Positions 1-39,854 of a stretch of DNA of 39,854 nucleotides are shown in pieces. Position 1 is the stretch's first letter; each line of letters starts with the position of its first letter. The stretch is taken from sequence record OZ035803.1; one strand, written 5' to 3'. A model generated the notes under the pieces. It made no database searches. It was given only the letters and a program-made list of their open reading frames with translations, and was not told the DNA's origin. Origin of the DNA: Kayfunavirus LI10P1. The position numbers were made by a program, and so were the translations under genes.

Positions 1-33
1 TACAAAACGATTAAAGGAGGTGGTAAAACATGA
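1..33 (+). CDS. 17.5: 3' end of holin gene (T7 gene 17.5-like); continues in frame from the ORF open at the window end (39693..39854)
   Basis: Reading frame of 39693..39854 ends exactly on a codon boundary at 39854 and continues at position 1 as YKTIKGGGKT-stop (TGA at 31-33), overlapping the ATG of gene 18. Joined product is about 64 aa, like T7 gp17.5. Confidence 0.6.
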   Translation, partial: YKTIKGGGKT

Positions 34-293
34 CGCAGATGGACTTAGAGAAGTTCCTCTTGATGCTTGATACTGAACGTGCTCGACTCATGCTGCAAGA
101 CTTGCGGGATGACACTAAGCGTTCACCTCAGCTCTACAACTCCATTGAGAAGCTGCTTGCTCGTCACAACTTTGTGTTAAGCAAGGTGTCTGTGGACGAG
201 AAGACGCTGGCTGATATGGAGGCCCTGAACGCAGAGTACGATAGGGTTCTTTCAGCGACTGAGGATAATGACACAGGGTATGGTGTTCAATAA
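30..293 (+). CDS. 18: DNA maturation protein A / small terminase subunit (T7 gp18-like)
   Basis: 87-aa ORF with RBS AAAGGAGG upstream; sequence (..FLLMLDTERARLMLQDL..RSPQLYNSIEKLLARH..) resembles T7 gp18 as recalled; sits immediately before the 18.5/19 block. Confidence 0.85.
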   Translation: MTQMDLEKFLLMLDTERARLMLQDLRDDTKRSPQLYNSIEKLLARHNFVLSKVSVDEKTLADMEALNAEYDRVLSATEDNDTGYGVQ

Positions 294-295
294 GT

Positions 296-345
296 GTTAG
301 ACTCAAGGTCATTACTATATGTAGTGGCCTTTATGGTTAACACTA
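296..345 (+). promoter_or_regulatory. Conserved RNA hairpin (RNase III-like processing site, R18.5-like)
   Basis: Stem AAGGTCA (305-311) pairs with TGGCCTT (325-331) including one G-U pair, with a 13-nt loop; same stem with different loops recurs at 9558-9584 and 16663-16687; resembles the T7 R1.1 motif GAGUGGCCUUUAUGAUU. Confidence 0.4.
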
Positions 346-394
346 ACTAGTGGAGGCAACTCTACGTGAAATCTGATAAACCGGGAGGGCAACT

Positions 395-844
395 ATGCTC
401 GAATTTTTAAAGAGAGCGGCTCCGTGGTTACTTGCAGCAGTGATGTTTGCTGGTGGCTACCACACCGCTAACAATAAGTGGGAGGCTAAGGTCAATGCAG
501 AATACACCTCGAATCTTAAGGCATCGGAAGATACAAGGCTTGCTGTCCAAGCTGAAGTCAACAAAGTGTCCAAACGGTTTCAGGACGAAATGTCCTCGTT
601 GGAAGGCAGCACTGATAGGATTATTGCTGACCTTCAGTCTGACAATAAGCGGCTGCGCATCCGAGTCAAACCAACGAGTGGAACCACGCAAAGTGACGGT
701 CGATGCGTCATTGATGGTTACGCCGAACTTGACGAACGAGATGCTAAACGTCTTATCGCCATCGGAGTGAAAGGAGACAAGTGGATTAAGGCCCTTCAGG
801 ACACTGTGAGAGCCTTGCAGCAAGATAAGGAGGTGACGCATTGA
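395..844 (+). CDS. 18.5: i-spanin (Rz-like, T7 gp18.5-like)
   Basis: 149-aa ORF with hydrophobic N-terminal segment ([15 protein letters not shown]) followed by a charged, helical-looking periplasmic region; an embedded +1-frame ORF carries a lipobox; position between gene 18 and gene 19 as in T7. Confidence 0.8.
495..770 (+). CDS. 18.7: o-spanin (Rz1-like, T7 gp18.7-like) embedded in 18.5 in the +1 frame; start codon uncertain
   Basis: Embedded ORF contains [23 protein letters not shown] with lipobox LTISG-C (Cys codon 654-656) and a short mature part; the nearest in-frame ATG is at 495, which would give an unusually long pre-sequence, so the true start is unresolved. Confidence 0.45.
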   Translation: MQNTPRILRHRKIQGLLSKLKSTKCPNGFRTKCPRWKAALIGLLLTFSLTISGCASESNQRVEPRKVTVDASLMVTPNLTNEMLNVLSPSE

Positions 845-2604
845 GTAAAGATTTAGTGGCGCGTCAGGCGCTAATGACTGCCCGTATGAAGGCAGACTTC
901 GTGTTCTTCCTGTTCGTCCTGTGGAAAGCTCTGTCACTACCAGTCCCGACTCGCTGTCAGATTGACATGGCGAAGAAACTATCGGCTGAGGACAACAGGC
1001 GTTTCATCCTACAGGCGTTCCGTGGTATCGGGAAGTCATTCATTACGTGCGCATTCGTGGTATGGAAACTGTGGAACAACCCAGACTTGAAGTTCATGAT
1101 TGTGTCGGCCTCAAAGGAACGAGCCGATGCGAACTCCATCTTCATCAAGCGAATCATCGACCTCATGCCTCAGCTTCAGGAACTTAAACCTAAGCAGGGG
1201 CAGCGAGATGCGGTTATCAGCTTCGACGTTGGACCAGCCAAGCCAGATCACTCACCTTCGGTTAAGTCCGTTGGTATCACTGGTCAGTTGACTGGTAGTC
1301 GTGCTGACATCCTGATTGCCGATGACGTGGAGGTTCCGAACAACTCAGCGACTCAGGCTGCACGAGACCGTCTGTCAGAGCTTGTGAAAGAGTTCGACGC
1401 TATCCTGAAGCCGGGAGGTACAATCATCTATCTGGGTACTCCTCAGAACGAGATGACCTTGTATCGTGAGCTGGAAGGCCGAGGATACACCACTACTATC
1501 TGGCCTGCTCGTTATCCACGCGATAAGAAGGACTGGCAGTCTTACGGCGACCGTCTGGCTCCTATGCTTCAGGCAGAGCTGGAAGAGGACCCTGAGTCCT
1601 TCTACTGGCGTCCGACCGATGAAGTACGATTCGATGATACGGACCTGAAGGAACGTGAGCTGTCCTATGGTAAAGCTGGATTCGCTCTACAGTTCATGCT
1701 TAACCCAAACCTGAGTGATGCTGAGAAGTACCCTCTGAAGCTCCGTGACCTTATCGTAGCCGACTTGGACCCAGCGTCTAGCCCAATGGTATACCAATGG
1801 CTTCCTAACCCTCAGAACAAGCGTGAGGACGTTCCTAACGTTGGACTCATGGGTGACTCATACCACACGTATCAGACTGTAGGTTCTGCCTTCAGCTCAT
1901 ACACCCAGAAGATTCTGGTCATTGACCCTAGTGGTCGTGGTAAGGATGAAACTGGTTATGCGGTACTGTACCAGCTCAACGGCTACATCTTCGCTATGGA
2001 AGTTGGTGGTATGCGTGGTGGCTATGAAGACTCTACGCTGGAAGCATTGGCTAAGATTGGTCGTAAGTGGAAGGTCAACGAATACGTCATTGAGGGTAAC
2101 TTCGGTGATGGTATGTACCTTGAGCTATTCAAGCCTGTAGCGGCCCGTATACATCCTGCTGCTGTAACTGAAGTGAAGAGTAAGGGTCAGAAAGAACTCC
2201 GCATCTGTGACGTTCTGGAGCCTATCATGGGGTCTCACCGACTTATCGTCAACGCTGCTGCTATCGTACAAGATTACCAGTTGGCCTCTGATAAGGATGG
2301 TGTTCGTAACCCTATCTACTCTCTCTTCTACCAGATGACACGTATCTCTCGTGAACGTGGAGCATTGGCACACGATGACCGACTTGATGCGCTGGCTATC
2401 GGTGTACAGTTCTTCGTTGAGTCTATGGCGAAGGATGCCAACAAAGGCGAACGTGAAGTCACTGAGGAGTGGCTGGAAGAACAGATGGAGAACCCACGGA
2501 AAGGCTTCGAGTCAATCCACACTGAGTTCTGGGACAATGGGGTCAGGGTAACTCACGATACTGACGACGAGATGGGACTAGGGTCCTACGTTACGTTCCA
2601 CTAG
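841..2604 (+). CDS. 19: Terminase large subunit / DNA maturation protein B (T7 gp19-like); probable TTG start
   Basis: 587-aa ORF collinear with T7 gp19 ([102 protein letters not shown]). AAGGAGGTGA lies 6 nt upstream of TTG 841; the next ATG (874) has no RBS and would truncate the conserved N-terminus. Confidence 0.95.
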
Positions 2605-2698
2605 CTGAATGAATAACTATAGGCGAAAACTGAATTAATAAGCAGTTAGTAACCTATAGTTACTACCAGCCTAACCTACTGTTTTATAAGGAGTTTGG

Positions 2699-2721
2699 AC
2701 TTAACTATCACTATAGGGAAG
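2699..2721 (+). promoter_or_regulatory. Phage RNAP promoter (phiOR-like, downstream of gene 19)
   Basis: acTTAACTATCACTATA-GGGAAG; matches the 11-member family (TAAACTATCACTATAGGGA) with one mismatch at -14; predicted +1 G at 2716. Confidence 0.75.
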
Positions 2722-2900
2722 ACCCCCGGTTACTTATAGTATTACTGTAGTGAATATACATATGCAGACTTTATGCAAGACCTTAGGAGGCAGACTCCGA
2801 GTTCTTACCTAAGGCTTGCACCGATGGAAGGAGGGTGATATTAATCATAATCCCTCCTATACAGATAGTAAAGACCATAGATACAGGAGGTATGTAGCAT

Positions 2901-3059
2901 ATGGCAAAGACCAAAGCTGTCCTTAAAGCTCTGGCGACCAATCGAGCTACATACAGGTTTCTTGCTGCTGTTCTACTTGCTGCTGGCGTTACTGCTGGAA
3001 GTCAGTGGGTCGGGTGGGTCGAGACTCTCGTATGTTCTCTGGTCTCTCAGTGTAATTAA
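2901..3059 (+). CDS. 19.5: Small membrane protein (T7 gp19.5-like)
   Basis: 52-aa ORF not in the supplied track (below its length cut-off), RBS AGGAGG 2886-2891; MAKTKAVLKALATNRATYRFLAAVLLAAGV.. resembles T7 gp19.5 (..RVTYRFLVVL..) as recalled; last gene before the genome right end as in T7. Confidence 0.6.
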   Translation: MAKTKAVLKALATNRATYRFLAAVLLAAGVTAGSQWVGWVETLVCSLVSQCN

Positions 3060-3128
3060 CGCAATCATAGTAACGATTCATGAGCGGAAGACCTAAGGTC
3101 AGTACGTGGATAAAGACTCACTCTACTG

Positions 3129-3270
3129 ACCTTAGCTACTGTAGGTCAAGGACTTTAGGTAACACCTTAATAGAAGCTCACTTAGGGTCATCCTACTTAT
3201 TGGTCTATCCTAGTGTCGCCTGACCTACGGTCCTTGACCTACAGTAGCTGCCACCTACGGTCACTCGATG
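3129..3270. repeat. Short repeats (CCTAC[A/G]GT[C/A]) left of the predicted terminal repeat, i.e. right genome end
   Basis: Direct copies at 3224-3232 (cctacggtc), 3238-3246 (cctacagta), 3254-3262 (cctacggtc), plus an inverted copy in gctactgtaggtcaagg near 3140-3156. Confidence 0.5.
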
Positions 3271-3298
3271 AGTTTTGGACCAAAAGTTTGAGACCACA

Positions 3299-3478
3299 TC
3301 TCACAGTTCAAGAACCTCAAGTCTCCCCATAGGCCCTCTTTCAGTCCAGACAAAGGCCCTACCCCCAGTCTATCATAAGGCTGGACCGATGGTCAAGACG
3401 TTAGGTCAACGATAGGTCTAGGCTATGGCTGGAGGTCAGGACGATAGGTAGGGACTATGGGTCTGCCTCTGAGTCCCT
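3299..3478. repeat. Predicted direct terminal repeat (single copy in this circular assembly); physical left end at about 3299
   Basis: TCTCACAGTTCAAGAACCTCAAGTCTCCCCATAGGCCC at 3299 parallels the T7 left-end sequence TCTCACAGTGTACGGACCTAAAGTTCCCCCATAGGGGG; ..CTCTGAGTCCCT ending at 3478 parallels the end of the T7 repeat (..CTCTGTGTCCCT). Boundaries are by analogy only. Confidence 0.45.
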
Positions 3479-3515
3479 ATCTGTATAGTGATATAGTATA
3501 ACATTACGTCCTACA

Positions 3516-3611
3516 CCTACAGTCTAACTAACCTACAGTCATTGACTCCTGCTGTACCTACAGTCACCGACCATCGGTAAAGCCATTACCTACAGTCAAA
3601 GACCTACAGTC
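3516..3611. repeat. Array of five direct 9-mer repeats CCTACAGTC just inside the left end
   Basis: Exact copies at 3516, 3532, 3557, 3589 and 3603 with irregular 14-32 nt spacing; analogous in position to the ACCTAAAG-type repeats next to the T7 terminal repeat. Confidence 0.6.
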
Positions 3612-3723
3612 TAACGACACAAAGCTATAGACTTAAGGTCTAATACATGTTAGTCAAAGACTATATCCTCTTAGTCACTATGGGGCCGACGATAGCTTAA
3701 TCAATATTATTTAAGATTACCTA

Positions 3724-3752
3724 TTGACTACAGGTCCAGACTATGGCTTAAT
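3724..3752 (+). promoter_or_regulatory. Host sigma70-type early promoter (T7 A1-like)
   Basis: -35 TTGACT (3724-3729), 17-nt spacer, -10 CTTAAT (weak); flanking sequence ..ccggataagtagacagcctgataagtc.. closely parallels the T7 A1-A2 region. Confidence 0.45.
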
Positions 3753-3864
3753 AGCTTCCGTCAACACGACACGGCAACAACCGGATAGTGAAGACGCCGG
3801 GTCATCCCGGTTAAGTAGACAGCCTGATAAGTCATACGAACAACAGGCAGATGACAGAAAGTAG

Positions 3865-3894
3865 TTGACAAGATGTACCGACTTAAAGTAGTAT
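3865..3894 (+). promoter_or_regulatory. Host sigma70-type early promoter (T7 A2/A3-like)
   Basis: -35 TTGACA (3865-3870), 18-nt spacer, -10 TAGTAT (3889-3894), followed by gtaccacat..gctctttaacaatctgg, which parallels the sequence downstream of T7 A3. Confidence 0.55.
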
Positions 3895-4011
3895 GTACCA
3901 CATCAACACGAAACAACGGTGACGACCAACACTGAAACGGTCTACCTGAAGTCCTCTGACTGAAGGGAATGCTCTTTAACAATCTGGATAAACTCTTAAT
4001 GTGCGCCGATA

Positions 4012-4070
4012 GCGACTAACTACAGGGCCTTTGAGTCTACATCTGAAGGCCCTGACTGATAGTCACTAAC
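4012..4070 (+). promoter_or_regulatory. Early-region conserved hairpin element, copy 1 (probable RNA processing site)
   Basis: gcgactaactaCAGGGCCTTtgagtctacatctgAAGGCCCTGactgatagtcactaac: 9-bp stem with 14-nt loop, immediately upstream of the RBS of the first early ORF. Confidence 0.45.
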
Positions 4071-4086
4071 TTAAAGGATGGACACT

Positions 4087-4332
4087 ATGAAACACTTAAG
4101 CACAATCACTAACAGCAATGAAGTATTCGTGAACACTAAAGGCTATGCGTGGATTCAGCTTAAAGAGATGACAGGAGCGCGTCACCGTGTGGTAGTGCGC
4201 AAGGTATCAAGCAAGCCGTTCAGCAACTACAGCGTAGATACTGTGCGCATAGACAACGAGACATACCTGATAGATTCGCAGATAACCGTGAGTCCTACAG
4301 CGGGCGTCTCAGCTCCTTATTTCGCTAACTGA
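4087..4332 (+). CDS. Hypothetical early protein (first early gene, upstream of ocr)
   Basis: 81-aa ORF (track ORF 4078..4332; ATG 4087 preferred because AGGA is 9 nt upstream); lies between a host promoter plus hairpin and ocr; no recognisable motif. Confidence 0.6.
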   Translation: MKHLSTITNSNEVFVNTKGYAWIQLKEMTGARHRVVVRKVSSKPFSNYSVDTVRIDNETYLIDSQITVSPTAGVSAPYFAN

Positions 4333-10070: not shown

Positions 10071-11132
10071 ATGACAACTATCAAAACCAACCCGCATCGC
10101 GCTGTAGATTACTCTGAGTCAGGCGTTAAGAAAGCGCTTGAAGCTGCTGGGTCGCTGGAAGCCGAAGTGAAGTATGACGGTGTGCGGTTGAATATTCCGG
10201 TCTTCCCTGATGGGCGAACTGAATGGTTAAGCCGTGAGTCAAAGACGCTTCCGGCCTTAGACCATTTGTCAACAGTTGGTCAGGACATCGGAGCATGCCG
10301 TGCGTCCGACTGGCGATGGTTCCTGAAGCAAGCAGGACATGAAGTCTCTGGTCTGATGATTGACGGAGAGGTGATGGTCAAGGGTGTAGACTTCAACACA
10401 TCCTCAGGTCTTATCCGCACCATGTGGTCTGACCGCAAGAACTACAAGTGGAACATTAACCCTAAGGCCGATATGGAGACCAAGAAGTCTAACAAGGTCC
10501 CATTCCAGATTAGCCCTGAGTTCCTACAAGTGGTCGTCTACGGGGTCATCGACCTTAACATCATCAACGACCCGAAAGCCGAAGGTCCTATCCATAGCGT
10601 CACACGCCTGAAGGCCGAAGCTATCGTCCCTCTCCTCCAGAAATACTTCCCGGAAATAGACTGGGTTCTGTCTGAGTCACACACGGTCTATGACCTTGAG
10701 TCGCTCAACTCCCTGTACGAACAGAAGCGTCTGGAAGGACACGAGGGTCTGGTAGTCAAGGACCCACTGGGAAAATACAAGCGTGGCAAGAAGTCAGGCA
10801 TGTGGAAGATGAAGCCTGAGGAGACAATTGACGGGACCGTGTGTGGCCTCGTGTGGGGGACTCCGGGAAAGGCTAACGAAGGTAAGGTCATCGGCTTCGA
10901 GGTTCTACTTGAGGATGGCATGGTGGTTAATGCTTGTGGTCTGACTGAAGAGCAGAAGGATGAGTTTACGGAAGCCTGTAACACTGATACATATATTCTC
11001 GGTGGAATCAATCCATACGAAGGATGGCAGTGTGAAGTACTCTTCATGGAGCGGTTCCAAGATGGTTCCCTTCGTCACCCTAGCTTCAAGTGCTGGCGCG
11101 GAACGGAAGACAACCCAACTGTTAAGAGCTAA
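10071..11132 (+). CDS. 1.3: ATP-dependent DNA ligase (T7 gp1.3-like)
   Basis: 353 aa from ATG 10071 (the track ORF starts upstream at 9975 inside gene 1.2); MTTIKTNP.., adenylation motif KYDGVR, EGHEGLVVKDP, LRHPSF.. collinear with T7 ligase. Confidence 0.93.
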   Translation: MTTIKTNPHRAVDYSESGVKKALEAAGSLEAEVKYDGVRLNIPVFPDGRTEWLSRESKTLPALDHLSTVGQDIGACRASDWRWFLKQAGHEVSGLMIDGEVMVKGVDFNTSSGLIRTMWSDRKNYKWNINPKADMETKKSNKVPFQISPEFLQVVVYGVIDLNIINDPKAEGPIHSVTRLKAEAIVPLLQKYFPEIDWVLSESHTVYDLESLNSLYEQKRLEGHEGLVVKDPLGKYKRGKKSGMWKMKPEETIDGTVCGLVWGTPGKANEGKVIGFEVLLEDGMVVNACGLTEEQKDEFTEACNTDTYILGGINPYEGWQCEVLFMERFQDGSLRHPSFKCWRGTEDNPTVKS

Positions 11133-11143
11133 CTAAATGTCAA

Positions 11144-11180
11144 CCCAGCAGTCCGAAGACCGCTGGGTTTCTTTGCTTTG
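11144..11180 (+). terminator. Intrinsic terminator after the ligase gene (T7 TE-like early terminator)
   Basis: cccagcaGTCcgaaGACcgctggg forms a GC-rich stem with a CGAA tetraloop, followed by tttctttgctttg (U-rich). Confidence 0.5.
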
Positions 11181-11266: not shown

Positions 11267-11521
11267 ATGTTTAAGAACTTAATGTTCAATCGTTATACAA
11301 GTACATTCCACCTGTCTCACAACCCGTTCGCTTGCATTAAGCGCAACGAGAAGCTTGGATACTTCGGGAAGGCCGTTAAGTTATCACCTACAGTCTTCGC
11401 TCTCGTTACTCCGGGTAAAGCTGAAGAGGCTCGCCAGAAGAAAGAGACCAACGTACCTGTGGTCTACACTAAATGGCCTCGCGTTCGTCTGTTCGTTGAG
11501 TTCGTGAAGGAGGTGTTCTGA
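11267..11521 (+). CDS. Hypothetical protein (84 aa), at the position of T7 genes 1.4-1.6
   Basis: RBS AAGGAGG upstream; stop overlaps the ATG of gene 1.7 (TGATG). Confidence 0.55.
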   Translation: MFKNLMFNRYTSTFHLSHNPFACIKRNEKLGYFGKAVKLSPTVFALVTPGKAEEARQKKETNVPVVYTKWPRVRLFVEFVKEVF

Positions 11522-12063
11522 TGGGATGTATAGCTTGCTTAGAGAAGGATGACCGTTATCCACACACCTGTAATAAAGGAGCTAACAACATGACTGAACG
11601 CGAGCAAGAAATGATCGTGAAGCTGGTAGACAACAACGAAGGTCGCCCAGATTATTTGGATGGCTGCGGGATCCTTTGCTCTAATGTCCCTTGCCACCTC
11701 TGCCCCGCAAACAACAATCCCAAAATAACCTTAGGTGAAATCCGAGCGATGGACCATCGTAAGTCTAATCTGGATAAACAAGAGGTAACTCCTACAGATT
11801 ACCAACCTTCCACTGAGTCAATCGACGCTGTCCGCAAGCCGTCCCACTATCAGGTCTTTGATGGTGTGGAATCCATTGAGATTATCGCCCGGTCCATGAC
11901 TGTCAGCGAGTTCCGTGGTTTCTGCATGGGTAACGTCCTGAAGTATCGACTCCGAGCTGGTAAGAAGTCCGAGCTGGCTACTATGGAGAAGGACCTAAAC
12001 AAAGCGGCCTTCTATCAGGAGCTGTTCGACCTGCATAAAGGTAAGTGCTATGCTGCCGAGTGA
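11521..12063 (+). CDS. 1.7: gp1.7-like nucleotide kinase
   Basis: 180 aa; GCIACLEKDDRYPHTCNKGAN, MTEREQEMI, GCGILCSNVPCHLCPANN, KITLGEIRAMD, ARSMTV, LKYRLRAGKKSELA nearly collinear with T7 gp1.7 as recalled. Confidence 0.85.
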   Translation: MGCIACLEKDDRYPHTCNKGANNMTEREQEMIVKLVDNNEGRPDYLDGCGILCSNVPCHLCPANNNPKITLGEIRAMDHRKSNLDKQEVTPTDYQPSTESIDAVRKPSHYQVFDGVESIEIIARSMTVSEFRGFCMGNVLKYRLRAGKKSELATMEKDLNKAAFYQELFDLHKGKCYAAE

Positions 12064-12145: not shown

Positions 12146-12300
12146 CTGAGGTTGAGAAGAAATACATCGTGGAGCTTGAGGGTCGCGTCCAGTCCTTCGA
12201 GGTTCCTGTGTACGCAAAGTCTCTTGAAGAGGCTACCATGAAGTCCCAAGAGTATGAGGACGCTGGGTTTGTGGTCGGACGGATTCGTCCTGAGACCTAA
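12142..12300 (+). CDS. 2: gp2-like inhibitor of host RNA polymerase
   Basis: 52-aa ORF, RBS GGAGCGAGG; ..[24 protein letters not shown] parallels T7 gp2 (..SFEVPIYAETLDEA..AGFEVTRVRP); below the track cut-off. Confidence 0.7.
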
Positions 12301-12318
12301 ACTATCACTGTAGGACAG
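12296..12318 (+). promoter_or_regulatory. Phage RNAP promoter (phi2.5-like; variant -3 G)
   Basis: cCTAAACTATCACTGTA-GGACAG; +1 G at 12313. Confidence 0.6.
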
Positions 12319-12358: not shown

Positions 12359-13057
12359 ATGGCTAAAGAGCAACTGAAGACTTTCACCACTCCGGTAGCT
12401 GGTATCGTTGAGCCTTACGCATGGCTGAACAGAGCAGACACCAAGTTTAACGAGCGTGGTGAGCATAAGGTTAACCTGACATTCAACCTGAGCGACCCGA
12501 AGGTCCGTAAGATGATTGATGTCTTACAGAAGATTCACGACGATGCGTATGCGAAAGCACTTGCAGACCACGAGAAGAACCCACCTCAGGTTCAGCGTGG
12601 CAAGAAGCCTATTGAACCACGAGAAGGCGACATGCCGTGGATTGAGAATGGTGACGGTACTGTTACCCTGAAGTTAAAATGCTTTGCGTCTTACCTTAAA
12701 GATGGCAAGTCAGAGCCTATCGTATTACGGTTCTACGACACCGATGCTAAACGCATCCGTGACGTCCCGAATATTGGCGCTGGGTCTAAGCTGAAGGTCA
12801 AGTTTAAAGTCCTGCCGTTCAAGTGGAACGCTGCGACGGGTGCAAGCGTTAAGCTCCAGCTTGAGTCCTGCCTTCTGGTAGAACTGAAGGAGTGGAAAGG
12901 TGATGGTAATGGTGGCGATGGTGGCTGGGGCGATGATGAAGACCTCGGTACTGGCTACAAAGCGTCAACCGATGGTGACTTCGGGTCTGATGACTTCGGT
13001 GACGATGGTTCCGAAGGTGGGGATGACTCCAACTCTGGTGGCGATTACGACTTCTAA
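12359..13057 (+). CDS. 2.5: Single-stranded DNA-binding protein (T7 gp2.5-like)
   Basis: 232 aa; EPYAW, GKKPIEPREGDMPW, GSKLKVKFKVLPFKWNAATGASVKLQLES, and an acidic C-terminal tail ending ..DYDF as in T7 gp2.5. Confidence 0.92.
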   Translation: MAKEQLKTFTTPVAGIVEPYAWLNRADTKFNERGEHKVNLTFNLSDPKVRKMIDVLQKIHDDAYAKALADHEKNPPQVQRGKKPIEPREGDMPWIENGDGTVTLKLKCFASYLKDGKSEPIVLRFYDTDAKRIRDVPNIGAGSKLKVKFKVLPFKWNAATGASVKLQLESCLLVELKEWKGDGNGGDGGWGDDEDLGTGYKASTDGDFGSDDFGDDGSEGGDDSNSGGDYDF

Positions 13058-13509
13058 TGGCCCAATGGTCTGCAAAACGGGGGCACTCTGTGGGTGCCTA
13101 CCGCTCTGGACTTGAAGCCAAGAACCAGCAGTGGCTGGAACAGAACGGCGTCAAAGCGGAGTACGAAAGCCATTATATCAACTATGTGATTCCGGCTTCC
13201 GACCACAAGTACACACCAGACTTTATCCTTCCCAACGGTATCATCGTTGAGACCAAAGGTATCTTCGATAGTGATGACCGTAAGAAGCACCTTCTGGTAC
13301 GAGAACAGCACCCAGAGTTAGACATTCGGTTCGTGTTCTCAAGTTCCCGCTCCAAGTTATACAAAGGGTCTCCGACCACGTATGGCGCATGGTGCGAAAA
13401 GAACGGCTATAAGTATGCCGATAAGTTCATCCCGGTTGAGTGGCTCAGAGAGGCGACTGTACGTCTGCCTTCCGGTATCCTCATCCCCAAGAAGAAAGGA
13501 GTTAAGTGA
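13057..13509 (+). CDS. 3: Endonuclease I (Holliday-junction resolvase, T7 gp3-like)
   Basis: 150 aa; GAYRSGLE, YVIPASDHKYTPDFILPNGIIVETKG, SDDRKKHLLVREQHPELDIRFVFSSSRSKLYKGSPTTYG collinear with T7 endonuclease I. Confidence 0.93.
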   Translation: MAQWSAKRGHSVGAYRSGLEAKNQQWLEQNGVKAEYESHYINYVIPASDHKYTPDFILPNGIIVETKGIFDSDDRKKHLLVREQHPELDIRFVFSSSRSKLYKGSPTTYGAWCEKNGYKYADKFIPVEWLREATVRLPSGILIPKKKGVK

Positions 13510-13979
13510 TGACTCAGAAATATAGACTTAAGGTTAGTTGCTGCGGGTGGCCTAAAGGTACTATCGTTACGAAATGTGCGAAAGACCCGTGTACAGCATC
13601 TGGAATTGTTCTGGTGGAATCCACTGAGCGTGGCCACTTCAAGCACGGAGCAGCAGGTTATAACACTCAGCCTGACGGTATGTGGGGGGCGTGGGTTGCA
13701 AAAGCACATCTTGAGGAAATCGTAGAGGATAAACCTCAAGTCATGCCAGCTTCGAGCGTACCGCCTGTGACTGTGAAGCGTGAAGTCCTGACCATCAACA
13801 AGATTGGTGTAGGGCAGACGTTCATCGTCCACGGTAAGCCTGACGAAGTGTACGTGAAGATTAGCAACTCTCACGTCTTCAACCATAAGTTGCTCCAGAT
13901 GCACACGACTGACGCACATCGCTTCCAGTCACATCTGAATCTAGTGGTCGTAGAATTGGTGGTGTACAATGGTAAGTAA
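13509..13979 (+). CDS. Hypothetical protein (156 aa) inserted between endonuclease I and the amidase
   Basis: ATG overlaps the gene 3 stop (TGATG) with GGAG 8 nt upstream; 3' end overlaps the start of gene 3.5 by 11 nt; N-terminal Cys-rich segment (SCCGWPKG..KC..PC); no homolog recognised; T7 has no gene here. Confidence 0.6.
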   Translation: MTQKYRLKVSCCGWPKGTIVTKCAKDPCTASGIVLVESTERGHFKHGAAGYNTQPDGMWGAWVAKAHLEEIVEDKPQVMPASSVPPVTVKREVLTINKIGVGQTFIVHGKPDEVYVKISNSHVFNHKLLQMHTTDAHRFQSHLNLVVVELVVYNGK

Positions 13980-14427
13980 GGTACAGTTCAACCCACGGTC
14001 CCGGACTGACGCTATCTTCGTTCACTGTTCGGCTACCAAGCCAGATATGGACATCGGGGTAGAGACCATCCGTATGTGGCACAAGCAGCAAGGATGGCTG
14101 GACGTAGGCTACCACTTTATCATCAAACGTGATGGCACTGTGGAAGAGGGTCGCCCGGTCAATGTCGTAGGGTCACACGTTAAGGACTGGAACTCCAAGT
14201 CAGTAGGCGTCTGCCTTGTAGGTGGAATTGACGCTAAGGGCAAGTTTGAAGCTAACTTCACTCCGGCCCAGATGAACTCACTGCGCAACAAGCTGGCTGA
14301 CCTGAAGGCCCTGTATCCTCAGGCAGAAATAAAAGCACACCATGATGTAGCACCTAAGGCGTGTCCAAGTTTCGACTTGCAGCGCTGGCTATCTACCAAT
14401 GAACTGGTAACTTCAGACCGTGGTTAA
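13969..14427 (+). CDS. 3.5: N-acetylmuramoyl-L-alanine amidase / T7 lysozyme (gp3.5-like; in T7 also an RNAP inhibitor)
   Basis: 152 aa; DAIFVHCSATKP, WLDVGYHFIIKRDGTVEEGR, VGVCLVGGID, KGKFEANFTPAQM, HHDVAPKACPSFDL, ELVTSDRG collinear with T7 gp3.5. Confidence 0.94.
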   Translation: MVSKVQFNPRSRTDAIFVHCSATKPDMDIGVETIRMWHKQQGWLDVGYHFIIKRDGTVEEGRPVNVVGSHVKDWNSKSVGVCLVGGIDAKGKFEANFTPAQMNSLRNKLADLKALYPQAEIKAHHDVAPKACPSFDLQRWLSTNELVTSDRG

Positions 14428-14451: not shown

Positions 14452-14667
14452 ATGATTAAACTTATCGAATTTCTTGGTCGTCTGGTGGTGCGTGGTTATC
14501 GTCGTGCTGCGGTTATGGAACGAAAGGTAGAAAAGAAGACTGCTGACAGTGCGGCTGATGCAGCTGCTCTGGCTGACAAGCTGACCATCGCGTCACTGGA
14601 AGCTGGCATGAAGGCACGTCAAGCTGACACCAAAGCTGACCAGTTGGCTCAGTTCTTCAAAGCCTAA
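14452..14667 (+). CDS. Hypothetical small protein (71 aa)
   Basis: RBS AAGGAGAA upstream; Ala/Lys-rich, probably helical; occupies the position of T7 gene 3.8 but lacks HNH motifs. Confidence 0.55.
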   Translation: MIKLIEFLGRLVVRGYRRAAVMERKVEKKTADSAADAAALADKLTIASLEAGMKARQADTKADQLAQFFKA

Positions 14668-14685
14668 ACTATCACCTTAGGGATG
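14663..14685 (+). promoter_or_regulatory. Weak or variant phage RNAP promoter upstream of gene 4
   Basis: CCTAAACTATCACCTTA-GGGATG: upstream half is consensus, but two mismatches in the -4/-3 melting region. Confidence 0.4.
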
Positions 14686-14732
14686 GGACAATAAGTCCTG
14701 TCCCTTTGTTCGCATTCGTGATTAAGGAGTGA

Positions 14733-32817: not shown

Positions 32818-35800
32818 ATGGCGACTCGTGGTATTCGCAATAACAATCCGGGTAACATCCGGGTAAGTAAGGACCAATGGGAAGGAATGACTGGAGATGA
32901 TGGCGCATTCGTCACCTTCGATAGTCCAGAGTCTGGCGTCCGAGCTTTAGGTAAAAACCTGCTGTCCTACGGTCGCCAAGGCTATGACTCCATCGAGAAG
33001 ATTATCAACCGATGGGCACCTCCTAACGAGAACGACACTAAGGCTTATATCGACTCAGTGGTGGCTGCAACTGGTATTCCAGCTACCCAGAGTCTCGACC
33101 TATCGAACCCGGACACCCTGTCTGCTCTGGCGCAAGCTATCAGCTTCCATGAGACAGGCTCCCGGTACAATCCTGAAGTCTATCAGAAGGGAGTCGAAAG
33201 AGCACTCAATGGCATTAGCCCAAAGACTCCACCAGTAAGCGCTAACGTATTTGACGCACTCACGGAAGGACTCAAGGCTAAACCTAAAGTAGCTCTGGGC
33301 GAGAACCTTCCGACCGCTGCTGGTCTAAACATTGAGGGTCAAGCACCTGAAGCTCCCAACGAATCGTTCGGTGAGATGTTCTATAAGTCTACTGGCGATA
33401 CCATGCAGGAGCGAGAGGACCGATCTACGTGGTTCGGTTTTGGTACTGCTACAGAAGCTGAAGTGAAGAACTCTATGGTCGGCGTGGCTATCCGCGCTGG
33501 TAAGACCGAGGACTCACTTGATGTCATTGGCGATGTGTTCAACCCGACACGCTGGAACAACCATAAGTGGTCTCGTGAGGAGCTGGACCAGATTCGTAAC
33601 GCTGGAGTTCTTCCTCAGTATTACGGGGTCATTACTGGTGGCTCCACTCAGAACCTGACCGAGCTTATTAACTTGGCGCTTGAGAACCAGAAGTTGGACC
33701 AAGAGAAGGCCAAGGCAGGGATTGGTGCTCAGTTAGCTGCTGGTGTGATTGGTGCTGGTGTAGACCCGCTGACCTACGTTCCTATAGCTGGACAGGTTGG
33801 TAAAGGTGGTAAGCTGGTCAACAAGATGTTCACCGTGGCTGCTCAATCTGGAGCACTGTCTGGTGTGTCCGAGATGGCCCGTACCTCAGTGGCTGGTGGT
33901 GACGCTCATGTGGCTGAAGCTATCCTTGGTGGTGCTCTCTTCGGTGGAGGGATGACTGCTATCGCTGATGGTTTAGGCAGAGCCTTAGGTCGCAACACTA
34001 ATGAGTTTGCTGGCCCAGCTACACGTCTGGAAGCTCGTGAGACCGCTCGTAACGTTGATGGTCAGGACCTGTCTCGTCTCCCTATTCAGGAAGGTGAGCA
34101 GACCTTTAGTCATCAAGGCGTTAAGTTCGCTGACGTTCCGAATGAGCCGGGTAGTGTACGACTTGAAGATGGATCAATCCTGATTGGTGAGAACCCTCTT
34201 AACCCTAAGACACGTCAAGTCTTTGACGAAGTGATTGAGCCTGAACGTGCCGCTGCTGGTGTGAACCTTGGTGGGCTAACTGAGATTGGCCTGAAGCTGC
34301 TTCGGTCCGAGAACCCTGAGATTCGTGGAGTCGCTGCCGACTTAGTGCGTTCACCGACTGGTATGCAGTCAGGGGCCTCAGGTAAAATCGGGACCACTGC
34401 GTCAGACGTATTCGAGAGACTTCGTGCTGTGGACCATCGGTTCTACAACGACATCGACGACGCGGTTACTGAGGCGCTCAAGGACCCATACTTCCAGACA
34501 GCATTCTGGCGAGACTCTGGCGCATTCCGTCAGGACATCTACCAGCGTGTGTCTATGGCTATTGAAGACGGAAGTGGGAACCTGAAGGCTGAACTGACTC
34601 CGGGAGAACTGAAAGTATATGACCTGCTGAAGAACCAGTTTGACGCCAAGCGTGAGATGATGGAGAACCCGGCGATGTTTGGTCGTCCAGACGCTCAGTC
34701 TATCTTTCCGGGTAGCCGCTTCAAGGGAACCTACGTCCCGCATGTGTATAGCAACCAGATGAAGGAGCTGTACATCAAGGAGCTTGGGAGTCCAGAGGCA
34801 CTACAGGAGGCCATCAAGAAGTCATGGTTGACCAGCTATGCGTCTCGACCTGAAGTAAAGAAACGCGTGGACGAGGCACTCTTAGAGGCTGACCCTACGT
34901 TGACTCCAGAGGGACTTGCGGCTGCGGTCGATAAGTACGCCAACGATAAGGCTTACGGCATCTCCCACACCGAGCAGTTCGAACGTTCATCCGTAATGGA
35001 AGAGAACATCAACGGTCTGGTTGGTCTGGAGAACAACAGCTTCCTTGAGGCTCGTAACCTGTTCGATAGCGATATGTCAATCGTCCTACCTAATGGTCAG
35101 ACCTTCAGTGTCAACAACCTGCGTGAGTGGGACATGGACAAGATTGTCCCGGCCTACAACCGTCGAGTTAATGGCGATATTGCTATCATGGCTGGTACAG
35201 GCAAAACCACGAAGGACATGAAGGACTTGGTTGAGACCATGATGAACAAGGCTGGTGATGACGGAAAGTTGAAAGGTGAAGTATCTACCTTACGTGACAC
35301 TTTGAAGATTCTAACTGGTCGTGCTCGACGTGATGGTGCTGATGATGCGGCCTTCGCTACCGTGATGCGCACAATGACAGACCTATCGTTCTTCGCTAAG
35401 AATGCCTACATGGGTGTTCAGAACTTAACGGAGATTGGTGGTATGTTAGCTCGTGGTAACGTGCGTGCATTGCTACATGGAGTACCTATGTTCCGTGACC
35501 TAGCCTTCCGTAACAAGAAGGTAGGGGCCTTAGAGATTAAGGACCTTCACAATGTTCTCTTCGGTAAGGAACTTGATGACTCAATCCGCCCGTCTAAACA
35601 GGATGTCATTGACCGTCTGCGCTCCTATAGCGACTTAGGCCGCGGGGCAGCTACAGCTCTGGGGACTGCCAAGTATTACACTGGTGAACTTGCAGTACGC
35701 TCTCCGTTCACTAAAGTCCTCAACGGTACGACAAACTACCTGTTAGATGCTGGACGTCAAGGATTCCTGTCCGACATCGTGGAACATAGTCTGACTGGCA

Positions 35801-36705
35801 GTAAGCGTCGGTTCGATGACCGCTGGCTTAAGACCGCTGGTATCTCCGACGAGCAGTGGAAGGGCATTAAGTCCCTAATCAGTGAGTCAGTGACTCGAGG
35901 TCCAGACGGGAAGTATACCATCAAGGATAAGAAGGCGTTCAGTCAGGACCCAAGGGCTATGGACCTGTGGCGTATGGGTGACACCATCGCTGATGAGACC
36001 CTGCTCCGCCCCCACAAGCTGAGCAACATGGACGCCAAGGCTTATGGTCCGATAGCGAAGACTGTCTTGCAGTTTAAGAACTTCGTTATCAAGTCTATCA
36101 ACGGTCGAACCATGCGTACCTTCTACAATGCCACCAAGAACAACCGAGCTATGGACGCTGCGCTGTCAACGGTTATGTCTATGGGTCTGGCTGGAATGTA
36201 CTACATGGCTCAGGCGCACATAAAGGCTTACGCTATGCAGGACGGTCGTGACCGAGAGTATCTGAAGCAAGCCCTTAACCCAACAATGATTGGCTATGCG
36301 GCGCTGTCCCGTAGCTCCCACTTAGGTGGTCCTCTTGGGGTCGCCAACATTCTGGGTGGAATCGCTGGGTATGAGGACACTAAGATGCTCCGCTCGTCAA
36401 TCCTTCCGCGCTCACCTACCGAGAAGACGGAGAAGCCAATCGCCTTTGGTGCTGCTTCCAGTGGTCCGGTAATGAATGTGGTCGGCAACTTCCTTGAGCA
36501 GGTCCCGGCTTTCGGCTATGCTGCTAACGTTGGTGCTACGGCTTACAACTTGGCGGGATACCTCAAGGCTGATACCCGTGTCAACGAGCGAGACTACATG
36601 ACCGGGATGTATAACACGTTCCGTGAACTTGTACCGAATGACCCGATTACCCAGAAGTTGCTGCTTGGAACGTTTGAGGAGCAGGGCATCCACATCAAGG
36701 ACTAA
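32818..36705 (+). CDS. 16: Internal core protein D (T7 gp16-like) with a divergent N-terminal domain
   Basis: ATG 32818 with AAGGAG 7 nt upstream (the track ORF starts at TTG 32800); from about residue 200 collinear with T7 gp16 (TRWNNHKW, AGVIGAGVDPLTYVP, VAGGDA, RLEARETARN, VRSPTGMQSGASGK, GTYVPHVY, KAYGISH, NNSFLEARNLFDSDMSI, RRVNGDIAIM, ILTGRARR, TNYLLDA, AMDLWR, ALSRSS, ANVGAT, LVPNDPITQ); the first 130 aa (IRNNNPGNIR..) differ from the T7 transglycosylase region. Confidence 0.93.
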   Translation: MATRGIRNNNPGNIRVSKDQWEGMTGDDGAFVTFDSPESGVRALGKNLLSYGRQGYDSIEKIINRWAPPNENDTKAYIDSVVAATGIPATQSLDLSNPDTLSALAQAISFHETGSRYNPEVYQKGVERALNGISPKTPPVSANVFDALTEGLKAKPKVALGENLPTAAGLNIEGQAPEAPNESFGEMFYKSTGDTMQEREDRSTWFGFGTATEAEVKNSMVGVAIRAGKTEDSLDVIGDVFNPTRWNNHKWSREELDQIRNAGVLPQYYGVITGGSTQNLTELINLALENQKLDQEKAKAGIGAQLAAGVIGAGVDPLTYVPIAGQVGKGGKLVNKMFTVAAQSGALSGVSEMARTSVAGGDAHVAEAILGGALFGGGMTAIADGLGRALGRNTNEFAGPATRLEARETARNVDGQDLSRLPIQEGEQTFSHQGVKFADVPNEPGSVRLEDGSILIGENPLNPKTRQVFDEVIEPERAAAGVNLGGLTEIGLKLLRSENPEIRGVAADLVRSPTGMQSGASGKIGTTASDVFERLRAVDHRFYNDIDDAVTEALKDPYFQTAFWRDSGAFRQDIYQRVSMAIEDGSGNLKAELTPGELKVYDLLKNQFDAKREMMENPAMFGRPDAQSIFPGSRFKGTYVPHVYSNQMKELYIKELGSPEALQEAIKKSWLTSYASRPEVKKRVDEALLEADPTLTPEGLAAAVDKYANDKAYGISHTEQFERSSVMEENINGLVGLENNSFLEARNLFDSDMSIVLPNGQTFSVNNLREWDMDKIVPAYNRRVNGDIAIMAGTGKTTKDMKDLVETMMNKAGDDGKLKGEVSTLRDTLKILTGRARRDGADDAAFATVMRTMTDLSFFAKNAYMGVQNLTEIGGMLARGNVRALLHGVPMFRDLAFRNKKVGALEIKDLHNVLFGKELDDSIRPSKQDVIDRLRSYSDLGRGAATALGTAKYYTGELAVRSPFTKVLNGTTNYLLDAGRQGFLSDIVEHSLTGSKRRFDDRWLKTAGISDEQWKGIKSLISESVTRGPDGKYTIKDKKAFSQDPRAMDLWRMGDTIADETLLRPHKLSNMDAKAYGPIAKTVLQFKNFVIKSINGRTMRTFYNATKNNRAMDAALSTVMSMGLAGMYYMAQAHIKAYAMQDGRDREYLKQALNPTMIGYAALSRSSHLGGPLGVANILGGIAGYEDTKMLRSSILPRSPTEKTEKPIAFGAASSGPVMNVVGNFLEQVPAFGYAANVGATAYNLAGYLKADTRVNERDYMTGMYNTFRELVPNDPITQKLLLGTFEEQGIHIKD

Positions 36706-36723
36706 ACTATCACTATAGGAAAC
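36701..36723 (+). promoter_or_regulatory. Phage RNAP promoter (phi17-like)
   Basis: aCTAAACTATCACTATA-GGAAAC; +1 G at 36718; 52 nt upstream of the tail-fibre ATG. Confidence 0.75.
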
Positions 36724-36769
36724 TGGAGGCGCTACCATAGGTCTCCGTTTAAATCACAAAGGAGGCATA

Positions 36770-39625: not shown

Positions 39626-39692
39626 CTACACGCTGACCAACGTATGGTAACAACTTTGGGTCACGGACGACCCGCTTTAAACTGGAGGTTTT

Positions 39693-39854
39693 ATGATTGA
39701 GTTAGACTTCAAGAATGAGGTCCTTAAAGCCTCTCCTATCGTCGGGACCGCTGCGGCTGATGGTGCCAGTCGGTTCTTCTTCGGACTTACACTGAACGAA
39801 TGGTTCTACGTTGCAGCTATCGCGTACACCGTTGTCCAGATTGGTGTGCTAGTC
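39693..39854 (+). CDS. 17.5: Holin (T7 gp17.5-like), 5' portion; ORF runs off the window end and resumes at 1..33
   Basis: RBS GGAGG 6 nt upstream; MIELDFKNEVLKASPIVGTAAADGASRFFFGLTLNEWFYVAAIAYTVVQIG.. is near-identical to T7 gp17.5 (MLSLDFNNELIKAAPIVGTGVADVSARLFFGLSLNEWFYVAAIAYTVVQIG) as recalled. Confidence 0.85.
   Translation, partial: MIELDFKNEVLKASPIVGTAAADGASRFFFGLTLNEWFYVAAIAYTVVQIGVLV

Follow-up and report, generated by a model that had tools for sequence, protein, structure and literature searches.

The phage sequence analysed here, the 39,854-nucleotide record OZ035803.1 (Kayfunavirus LI10P1; hereafter the window, meaning the whole stretch), carries a small gene, gene 3.2, between gene 3, which encodes endonuclease I, and gene 3.5, which encodes an N-acetylmuramoyl-L-alanine amidase homologous to T7 lysozyme (Table 1). 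Sequence comparison places the window in Kayfunavirus, among the K1F-like Autographiviridae (Studiervirinae). A first-pass annotation of this DNA had described a well-formed open reading frame (ORF) at this place, with a ribosome-binding site and overlaps on both sides, and we could confirm its coordinates, its AAAGGAG Shine-Dalgarno (SD) sequence and both of its junctions. It had also considered the gene to be extra relative to T7, and this is correct, as T7 gene 3 (10257-10706) abuts gene 3.5 (10706-11161), so that T7 has no gene at this position. The product of the window gene, gp3.2, is a soluble-looking, mildly basic protein with a computed mass of 17.3 kDa and an isoelectric point of 9.1.

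Table 1. Features of the gene 3.2 locus and its surroundings in the window (aa, amino acids; nt, nucleotides; AF2, AlphaFold2; pLDDT, predicted local distance difference test score; omega, ratio of nonsynonymous to synonymous change)
Feature	Position	Strand	Description
Phage-RNA-polymerase promoter-like site before gene 2.5	12298-12316	+	TAAACTATCACTGTAGGAC; 3 mismatches to the consensus TAAACTATCACTATAGGGA
Gene 3, endonuclease I	13057-13509	+	150 aa; stop TGA 13507-13509 overlaps the gene 3.2 ATG
SD sequence of gene 3.2	13495-13501	+	AAAGGAG; 7 nt 5' of the ATG, within the final gene 3 codons
Gene 3.2	13509-13979	+	ATG 13509-13511, TAA 13977-13979; 156 aa
N-domain, type A	13509-13724	+	Codons 1-72; AF2-predicted five-strand SH3-like barrel; exchangeable cassette, judged from alignments
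Pro-rich linker	13725-13766	+	EDKPQVMPASSVPP; low pLDDT; omega 0.22; 3' boundary of the cassette
C-domain	13767-13976	+	Codons 87-156; conserved family core; small SH3-like barrel predicted by AF2
G-rich SD-like sequence and gene 3.5 ATG	13958-13971	+	GGTGGTG, then ATG; inside the final gene 3.2 codons
Gene 3.5, N-acetylmuramoyl-L-alanine amidase	13969-14427	+	T7-lysozyme homologue; 152 aa
Phage promoter before gene 4	14665-14683	+	TAAACTATCACCTTAGGGA; 0 mismatches to the 20-mer core of the EcoDS1 promoter
Tailspike gene	36770-39625		951 aa; near the window end (35400-39854)

Both junctions of gene 3.2 are laid out as in translationally coupled genes. Gene 3 ends in a TGA whose final A also opens the gene 3.2 ATG, and the start of gene 3.5 at 13969 produces an 11-nt overlap with the 3' end of gene 3.2. 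The SD sequence and ATG of gene 3.2 were kept in all 23 of the 23 type-A loci compared (those with the same N-terminal domain type as the window, see below) and also in loci with a short form of the gene, and TGGTGGTGTAC[A/G]ATGG at the gene 3.2/3.5 junction was kept in all type-A loci. Two other starts were rejected: the GTG at 13506, used by the ORF caller and in the K1F record, is in frame and not conserved, and an internal start at M79 falls on a residue that is Leu in most alleles. An antisense ORF of 170 aa (13407-13919, minus strand) is almost certainly spurious, because it is not conserved, the longest antisense ORF in 22 relatives having 42-140 aa, and because the other mapped features, both the promoter-like sites and the adjacent genes, all lie on the plus strand. 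The endonuclease I of the window is 100% identical to the annotated product in IME177, R1, and CR44b, and the amidase is 100% identical to that annotated in IME177. In two loci from Providencia-phage-like T7 relatives (L038 and L039), the gene 3 and amidase homologues carry the Pfam families PF05367 (Phage_endo_I) and PF01510 (Amidase_2), respectively.

The first-pass annotation had presented the gene as an insertion, but it is neither new nor specific to this phage: it has long been annotated, as gene 3.2 or 3.01, in K1F, EcoDS1, CR44b, and over 200 further phages of the Kayfunavirus, Caroctavirus, and Providencia T7-like groups. The 1.5-kb locus matched 224 phage records, with IME177 as the best DNA match (97%), and tblastn found relatives of gp3.2 in 219 of these 224 records. 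Existing annotations list a hypothetical protein, called "gp3.2" in K1F and EcoDS1 and "3.01" in CR44b and CR8; the window protein is 72-94% identical to gp3.2 of this type over its full length, and 68-92% identical to 120 listed homologues. When the synteny of the gene 3-3.5 junction was compared across related phages, gene 3.2 was found in the same place, and IME177, R1, P762, K1F, EcoDS1, and others share the layout of genes 3, 3.2, and 3.5. Caroctavirus CR8 carries the gene as well, and T7-like Providencia phages have a divergent version of it; even in this Providencia-phage clade, it directly follows endonuclease I. Gene 3.2 is thus placed by these alignments as a near-universal, already catalogued Kayfunavirus gene of hypothetical product.

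In the PHROG database, gp3.2 matched family 16385 (E 8.7e-91), residues 1-156 aligning with positions 1-157 of the 157 in the profile, and its C-terminal 70 residues also matched PHROG 15211, a separate family of 74 residues. Every defining feature of the gp3.2/PHROG 16385 family that we tested was found in the window ORF, which is accordingly assigned to this family by sequence. Among 5.8 billion protein clusters there were 255 homologues, all on contigs of ~40 kb. When the family profile was run exhaustively against 1.84 billion representative proteins, only 17 clusters (at 50% identity) came back, all from the gp3.2 family, with no bacterial, prophage, or T7/T3 counterpart among them. That the protein has no recognisable motif, as had been noted at first reading, was borne out by searches of Pfam, NCBIfam, PADLOC, and PDB sequences, none of which gave a match for the window gp3.2; for the PADLOC defence profiles, this means 0 families at E values up to 1. 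Pfam was likewise empty for nine relatives with other types of N-domain, apart from a few weak matches far below the cut-offs. In the literature, of which our coverage was incomplete, we found no functional statement on gp3.2 in work on the protein itself, K1F, Kayfunavirus anti-defence or escape mutants, or CR44b and CR8, nor any description of a modular, diversifying behaviour of gp3.2. The short form of the protein appears only as a table entry (PMC4925675).

The phage promoters were located by using a 20-mer from an annotated EcoDS1 promoter as the search seed, which had 7 matches in the window, with 0.01 expected by chance, and from which the window consensus TAAACTATCACTATAGGGA for the phage RNA polymerase was obtained. 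A scan with this consensus showed no promoter-like site between the one before gene 2.5 and the one before gene 4, and none inside gene 3.2. Because promoter-like sites flank this interval and none lies between them, genes 2.5, 3, 3.2, 3.5, and 3.7 most likely form one middle-gene transcription unit, which probably starts at the 12298-12316 site, and gene 3.2 is probably co-transcribed with the other four as a class II (middle) gene. Its synteny with genes 2.5, 3, 3.5, and 4 fits this class II placement. Directly 3' of the gene 4 promoter TAAACTATCACCTTAGGGA there is a GC-rich hairpin, GGGACAATAAGTCCTGTCCC (14685-14704), with a T-rich tail. The hairpin would be located at the extreme 5' end of the gene 4 transcript, or else serve to terminate or process the transcript of the preceding unit.

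Domain architecture and evolution of gp3.2

The AF2 models give two small SH3-like beta-barrels joined by the Pro-rich linker, which is conserved within Kayfunavirus. The N-domain was modelled as a compact domain with pLDDT values of 89-96. For the C-domain, the near-invariant family alignment gave values below 50, and a more diverse C-domain alignment was used instead. When the N-domain model was searched with Foldseek, PsaE and SH3 structures were the only neighbours, all of them non-significant (E > 0.4). Going by the models, the likeness to SH3-like domains is one of fold only, and not membership of a homologous family. Within the C-domain, the motif G..F...Y.x.SNSHxFN....QMHTT...RF is invariant in both clades and is represented in the window by SNSHVFN (119-125), QMHTT (130-134), and RF (138-139).

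The Cys-rich N-terminus pointed out in the first-pass annotation is real for the window allele, which has Cys at positions 11, 12, 23, and 28, but it is not a conserved motif. Only C23 is invariant, while C11, C12, and C28 sit at hypervariable positions and are present in 16%, 28%, and 4% of 110 alleles. A zinc finger or other Cys-rich metal-binding domain was rejected on these grounds, together with the absence of a Pfam zinc-finger match. A single-lobe 2H phosphoesterase, considered for the one HxT motif, was without structural support, and library scans found no catalytic or metal-binding signature in gp3.2.

The two domains differ in how they are distributed. For roughly three in four of the matched phage records, tblastn aligned only the C-terminal 45-69% of the query. 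The C-domain can stand alone, as an ORF of 74-76 aa that keeps the stop/start overlap with gene 3, for example in SH3, Dev2, and many Salmonella, Enterobacter, and E. coli phages. Elsewhere it is fused to other N-domains, for which clustering and hhalign distinguished at least nine sequence types. These types are mutually dissimilar, with hhalign probabilities below 10% except for one related pair, and for none of them was there a match in Pfam or a dedicated PHROG. Most types share their opening two to four codons (MTQ or MTK). The ORF is absent from close relatives with intact flanking genes in part only: Citrobacter phage SH3, with gp3 100% and gp3.5 97% identical to those of the window, lacks the N-terminal half, but the C-terminal half is always kept, there as an intact, coupled 74-aa ORF. 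From these comparisons, the C-domain emerges as the conserved, autonomous core of the gp3.2 family, present in nearly every genome of the group.

In alignments with phages that have other N-domain types, DNA identity to the window is 90-100% through gene 3, falls to ~30%, the random level, at roughly 13500-13710, and exceeds 90% again from about 13710-13740, that is, from the linker onwards. On this profile, the N-domain is a cassette that can be exchanged in frame, with the end of gene 3 on one side and the linker on the other. Direct evidence that N-domains are both accreted and exchanged as modules comes from four tandem forms of 226-227 aa on metagenomic contigs (P0085, P0099, P0101, and P0109), in which two N-domains precede the linker and C-domain, in the order type A followed by a domain of ~70 aa related to the "type B" of IMM-002/Vec13-like phages.

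Some further variants of the locus were observed. Four metagenomic type-A alleles (P0122, P0123, P0131, and P0132) are frameshifted, internally deleted, or prematurely terminated; P0122 and P0123 keep the C-domain frame, and all four could be artefacts of assembly or knock-outs of the N-domain that occur in nature. In Salmonella phage STP-SP6 (OR498733.1, L004:1451-1900), a 149-aa gene with an HNH motif typical of homing endonucleases, HKCDNKLCLNPDHLEVGTQRENIQDA, lies between gene 3.2 and the amidase gene, and the gene 3.2/3.5 junction is for this reason regarded as a place where mobile genes can insert in some Kayfunaviruses. In the two Providencia-phage-like relatives, one to three small ORFs of 49-116 aa without Pfam matches lie between the gp3.2 homologue and the amidase (L038:4434-5138 and L039:4438-4677), and the interval is there a small accessory-gene island. 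Both in STP-SP6 and on the Providencia-type contigs, gene 3.2 stays directly after gene 3 despite the extra genes downstream.

The domains also differ in the selection acting on them. Pairwise ratios of nonsynonymous to synonymous substitution (dN/dS) were calculated by the Nei-Gojobori method between the window and 15 type-A relatives. They were low for gene 3 (0.0-0.19; dS 0.05-0.78), gene 3.5 (0.0-0.30; dS 0.02-0.34), and the gene 3.2 C-domain (0.0-0.22; dS 0.15-0.58). For the N-domain, the ratio was 0.4-1.0 in pairs with unsaturated dS (0.09-0.44), reaching about 0.9-1.0 in several close pairs, and 0.11-0.16 in the most divergent pairs (dS above 2). Because synonymous sites vary in the C-domain, the constraint on it acts on the protein and not on the DNA, and this constraint at the protein level establishes that the frame of gene 3.2 is translated. 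A hidden DNA or RNA element as the cause of C-domain conservation was rejected, given the free variation of the synonymous sites and the lack of an internal promoter.

A tree-based count of codon changes, by parsimony in the manner of single-likelihood ancestor counting (SLAC), was made on 22 distinct coding sequences, a small sample from a locus in which recombination, which the count leaves aside, is evidently active. It gave an omega of 0.12 for the C-domain (purifying; binomial p 1e-26), 0.22 for the linker, and 0.58 for the N-domain. The N-domain is sharply bimodal: at 30 of its 72 codons the amino acid never changed, although synonymous sites had undergone 2.9 changes each on average, while at codons 28, 30, and 43 dN was about three times as high as the mean dS (p below 0.02 after Bonferroni correction), and at codons 11, 31, 64, and 67 the nonsynonymous rate was nominally elevated. 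Among 110 distinct type-A proteins, mean pairwise identity was 66% for the N-domain vs 92% for the C-domain, and positions 28 and 43 were each occupied by 18 different residues. The comparison with IME177 is an example, its gp3 and gp3.5 being 100% identical to those of the window and its gp3.2 only 90%. The hypervariable patches (9-12, 28-34, 43, and 64-67) fall mostly in loops or a turn between predicted strands, although codons 11, 33, 34, and 64 were scored as strand. If the predicted topology is taken as a guide, the hypervariable loops would correspond to the RT and n-Src loops and the 3-10 turn, which form the ligand face of SH3 domains.

Possible roles of gp3.2

From its fold, its size, and the absence of a catalytic or metal-binding motif, we infer that gp3.2 acts by binding and not by catalysis. 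A conserved core fused to a swappable, partly hypervariable domain is the pattern of proteins that face a changing partner, and the diversifying, cassette-like evolution of the N-domain seen in the alignments is compatible with the host-takeover or anti-defence role that had been suggested for the gene at first reading. Tentatively, and with somewhat less than even confidence, we propose that gp3.2 is a modular adaptor or inhibitor in the phage-host arms race, serving counter-defence or host takeover; this reading fits best because it accounts together for the maintained fold, the positively selected sites, and the cassette exchange. The C-domain would dock onto an invariant partner, which might be a machine conserved in the host or a protein of phage DNA metabolism. 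Specificity would come from the N-domain, whose fast-changing surface would target a host protein that itself varies, and the short forms, with the C-domain only, would retain a basal function without the add-on. A more specific version is rather unlikely as it stands, namely that gp3.2 represents a new class of modular counter-defence or host-takeover adaptor, in which the invariant C-domain latches onto a conserved machine of the cell or the phage, the plug-in N-domains, with their nine or more types and their hypervariable alleles, each recognise a different fast-evolving host protein such as a defence sensor, and cassette exchange, with the conserved gene 3 end and the linker as recombination arms, re-tools the phage for another set of host immune systems. 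None of our searches linked gp3.2, by similarity or in the literature, to any defence system or host target.

The protein could instead serve the phage internally, its C-domain aiding or regulating the proteins of DNA metabolism and maturation, such as endonuclease I, gp2.5, or the lysozyme-RNA polymerase switch, with N-domain variation reflecting escape from host immune sensors (abortive-infection triggers) or an optional add-on. The position of gene 3.2 speaks for such a role, always immediately 3' of gene 3 with overlapping stop and start, even where extra genes precede the amidase, and enclosed, together with the class II DNA-metabolism genes 2.5, 3, and 3.5, by the two promoter-like sites. 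So does the C-domain, which alone suffices in many phages and whose conservation is comparable to that of gp3 and gp3.5. Adjacency is, however, weak evidence of partnership, because gene order is fixed in T7-like phages, and T7, T3, and most other Studiervirinae do without the gene, which has no homologue outside three lineages; overall, we consider a phage-internal function somewhat improbable. A role as a small nucleic-acid-binding protein is very unlikely in our estimation; here, one or both of the SH3-like barrels, as KOW-, Tudor-, or Sso7d-like domains, would hold DNA or RNA, for instance a transcript, a replication intermediate, or branched DNA, and would thereby influence replication or gene expression.

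The variation might also mean little, if the N-domain were drifting, shuffled filler in a near-neutral passenger of which only the C-domain, or the translation signals that it carries for gene 3.5, mattered, without any arms race. The overall N-domain omega is below 1, the domain is missing from many phages, truncated and frameshifted alleles occur in metagenomes, the genome is mosaic relative to IME177 at many other places, and the SD sequence and ATG of gene 3.5 do lie inside the final gene 3.2 codons. Yet the invariance of 30 of the 72 N-domain codons amid abundant synonymous change indicates that the fold is actively maintained, AF2 predicts the domain to be compact with confidence, and three of its codons exceed the synonymous rate about threefold; likewise, the constraint on the C-domain protein, with dS up to 0.58, makes it more than a carrier of gene 3.5 signals. 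We judge this explanation distinctly unlikely. Least probable by far, and disfavoured here, is the view of gene 3.2 as a remnant or cargo of a selfish mobile element, of the homing-endonuclease type or another, in the gene 3/3.5 junction. It could draw on the HNH endonuclease gene next to gene 3.2 in STP-SP6 and on the sharp boundaries of the N-domain cassette, but a scan of ten family members that together represent the N-domain types found no nuclease, integrase, or transposase domain or motif, and no flanking repeats were noticed, though no dedicated search for them was made. Moreover, gene 3.2 is in frame, overlaps both neighbours, and is vertically conserved across the genus under purifying selection. 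That gp3.2 itself is a homing endonuclease was rejected, as the same ten members gave no Pfam match to HNH, GIY-YIG, or LAGLIDADG families.

The presence of gene 3.2 in the window is ordinary and no discovery, and the value of its evolutionary signature is as a generator of hypotheses. Kayfunaviruses, among them K1F, LM33_P1, CLB_P1, and the Vi-specific Salmonella Typhi phages, are in therapeutic use or have been suggested for it. If it is true that gene 3.2 alleles influence which strains or defence repertoires can be overcome, the gene would be a host-range determinant outside the tailspike. ElsieAttenhofer/Bas105, a Kayfunavirus in the BASEL collection, grows on E. coli K-12 with restored O16 O-antigen, and growth on this K-12 derivative makes the hypothesis directly testable.

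Other features of the window and comparison with known systems

The window is a circular permutation of the usual T7-type map: it opens in the late region, the early region follows, and the tailspike gene comes last. Its first ~4.1 kb (1-4100) align to the holin-terminase block of IME177. Over about 2.2 kb of the C-terminal part of the tailspike gene (roughly 37400-39600), similarity to IME177 is absent, consistent with a swap of the receptor-binding module. At 11521-12063, the window has a 180-aa ORF with a Cys-rich N-terminal half (MGCIACLEKDDRYPHTC...CGILCSNVPCHLCP); the matching IME177 region is 81-90% identical and annotated as several shorter ORFs (a nucleotide kinase and hypothetical proteins), and the gene models at this place may deserve a re-check. 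Escherichia phage pO2 (OR228483.1, L034:1835-2143) has an extra 102-aa hypothetical gene between the amidase gene and gene 3.7, which is absent from the window and represents a further small indel in this block of genes.

The closest counterparts of the window gene are gp3.2 of the coliphages K1F and EcoDS1 and 3.01 of the Citrobacter phages CR44b and CR8 (PHROG 16385), which are the same gene at the same position between endonuclease I and the amidase; from the K1F-type protein, the window allele differs mainly at the hypervariable N-domain positions, including the three non-conserved Cys. The short-form relatives (PHROG 15211) include gp3.2 of Cronobacter phage Dev2 and of the Citrobacter phages SH1-SH5. 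At the level of predicted fold, both gp3.2 domains share the five-strand topology of SH3-like barrels such as PsaE, eukaryotic SH3, FeoA, the KOW-like domain I of EF-P, the barrel of ribosomal protein L2, and Tudor domains.

In its design, gp3.2 may be likened to adaptors of the SspB (ClpXP) type, which also combine a variable recognition module, a flexible linker, and an invariant docking part; this is an analogy without homology, and the docking element is a peptide in those adaptors and a folded domain in gp3.2. The T4 internal-protein locus and the tailspikes, with their anchor and receptor-binding domain, offer a looser parallel, in that a constant part is kept and a variable part is swapped, as happens in gp3.2. 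The known host-takeover and anti-defence proteins of T7 are mostly helical or DNA mimics, and not tandem barrels. None of those characterised was among the 17 clusters that the profile search returned for the gp3.2 family. By analogy, gp3.2 can be compared with T7 Ocr/gp0.3, gp0.4, gp1.2, gp2, gp4.5, gp5.5, gp5.7, and gp5.9, which are small, non-structural, non-essential-looking, early or middle proteins that bind host proteins. For one of these, gp1.2, allelic variation decides the sensitivity to the defence protein PifA (PMC11990801).

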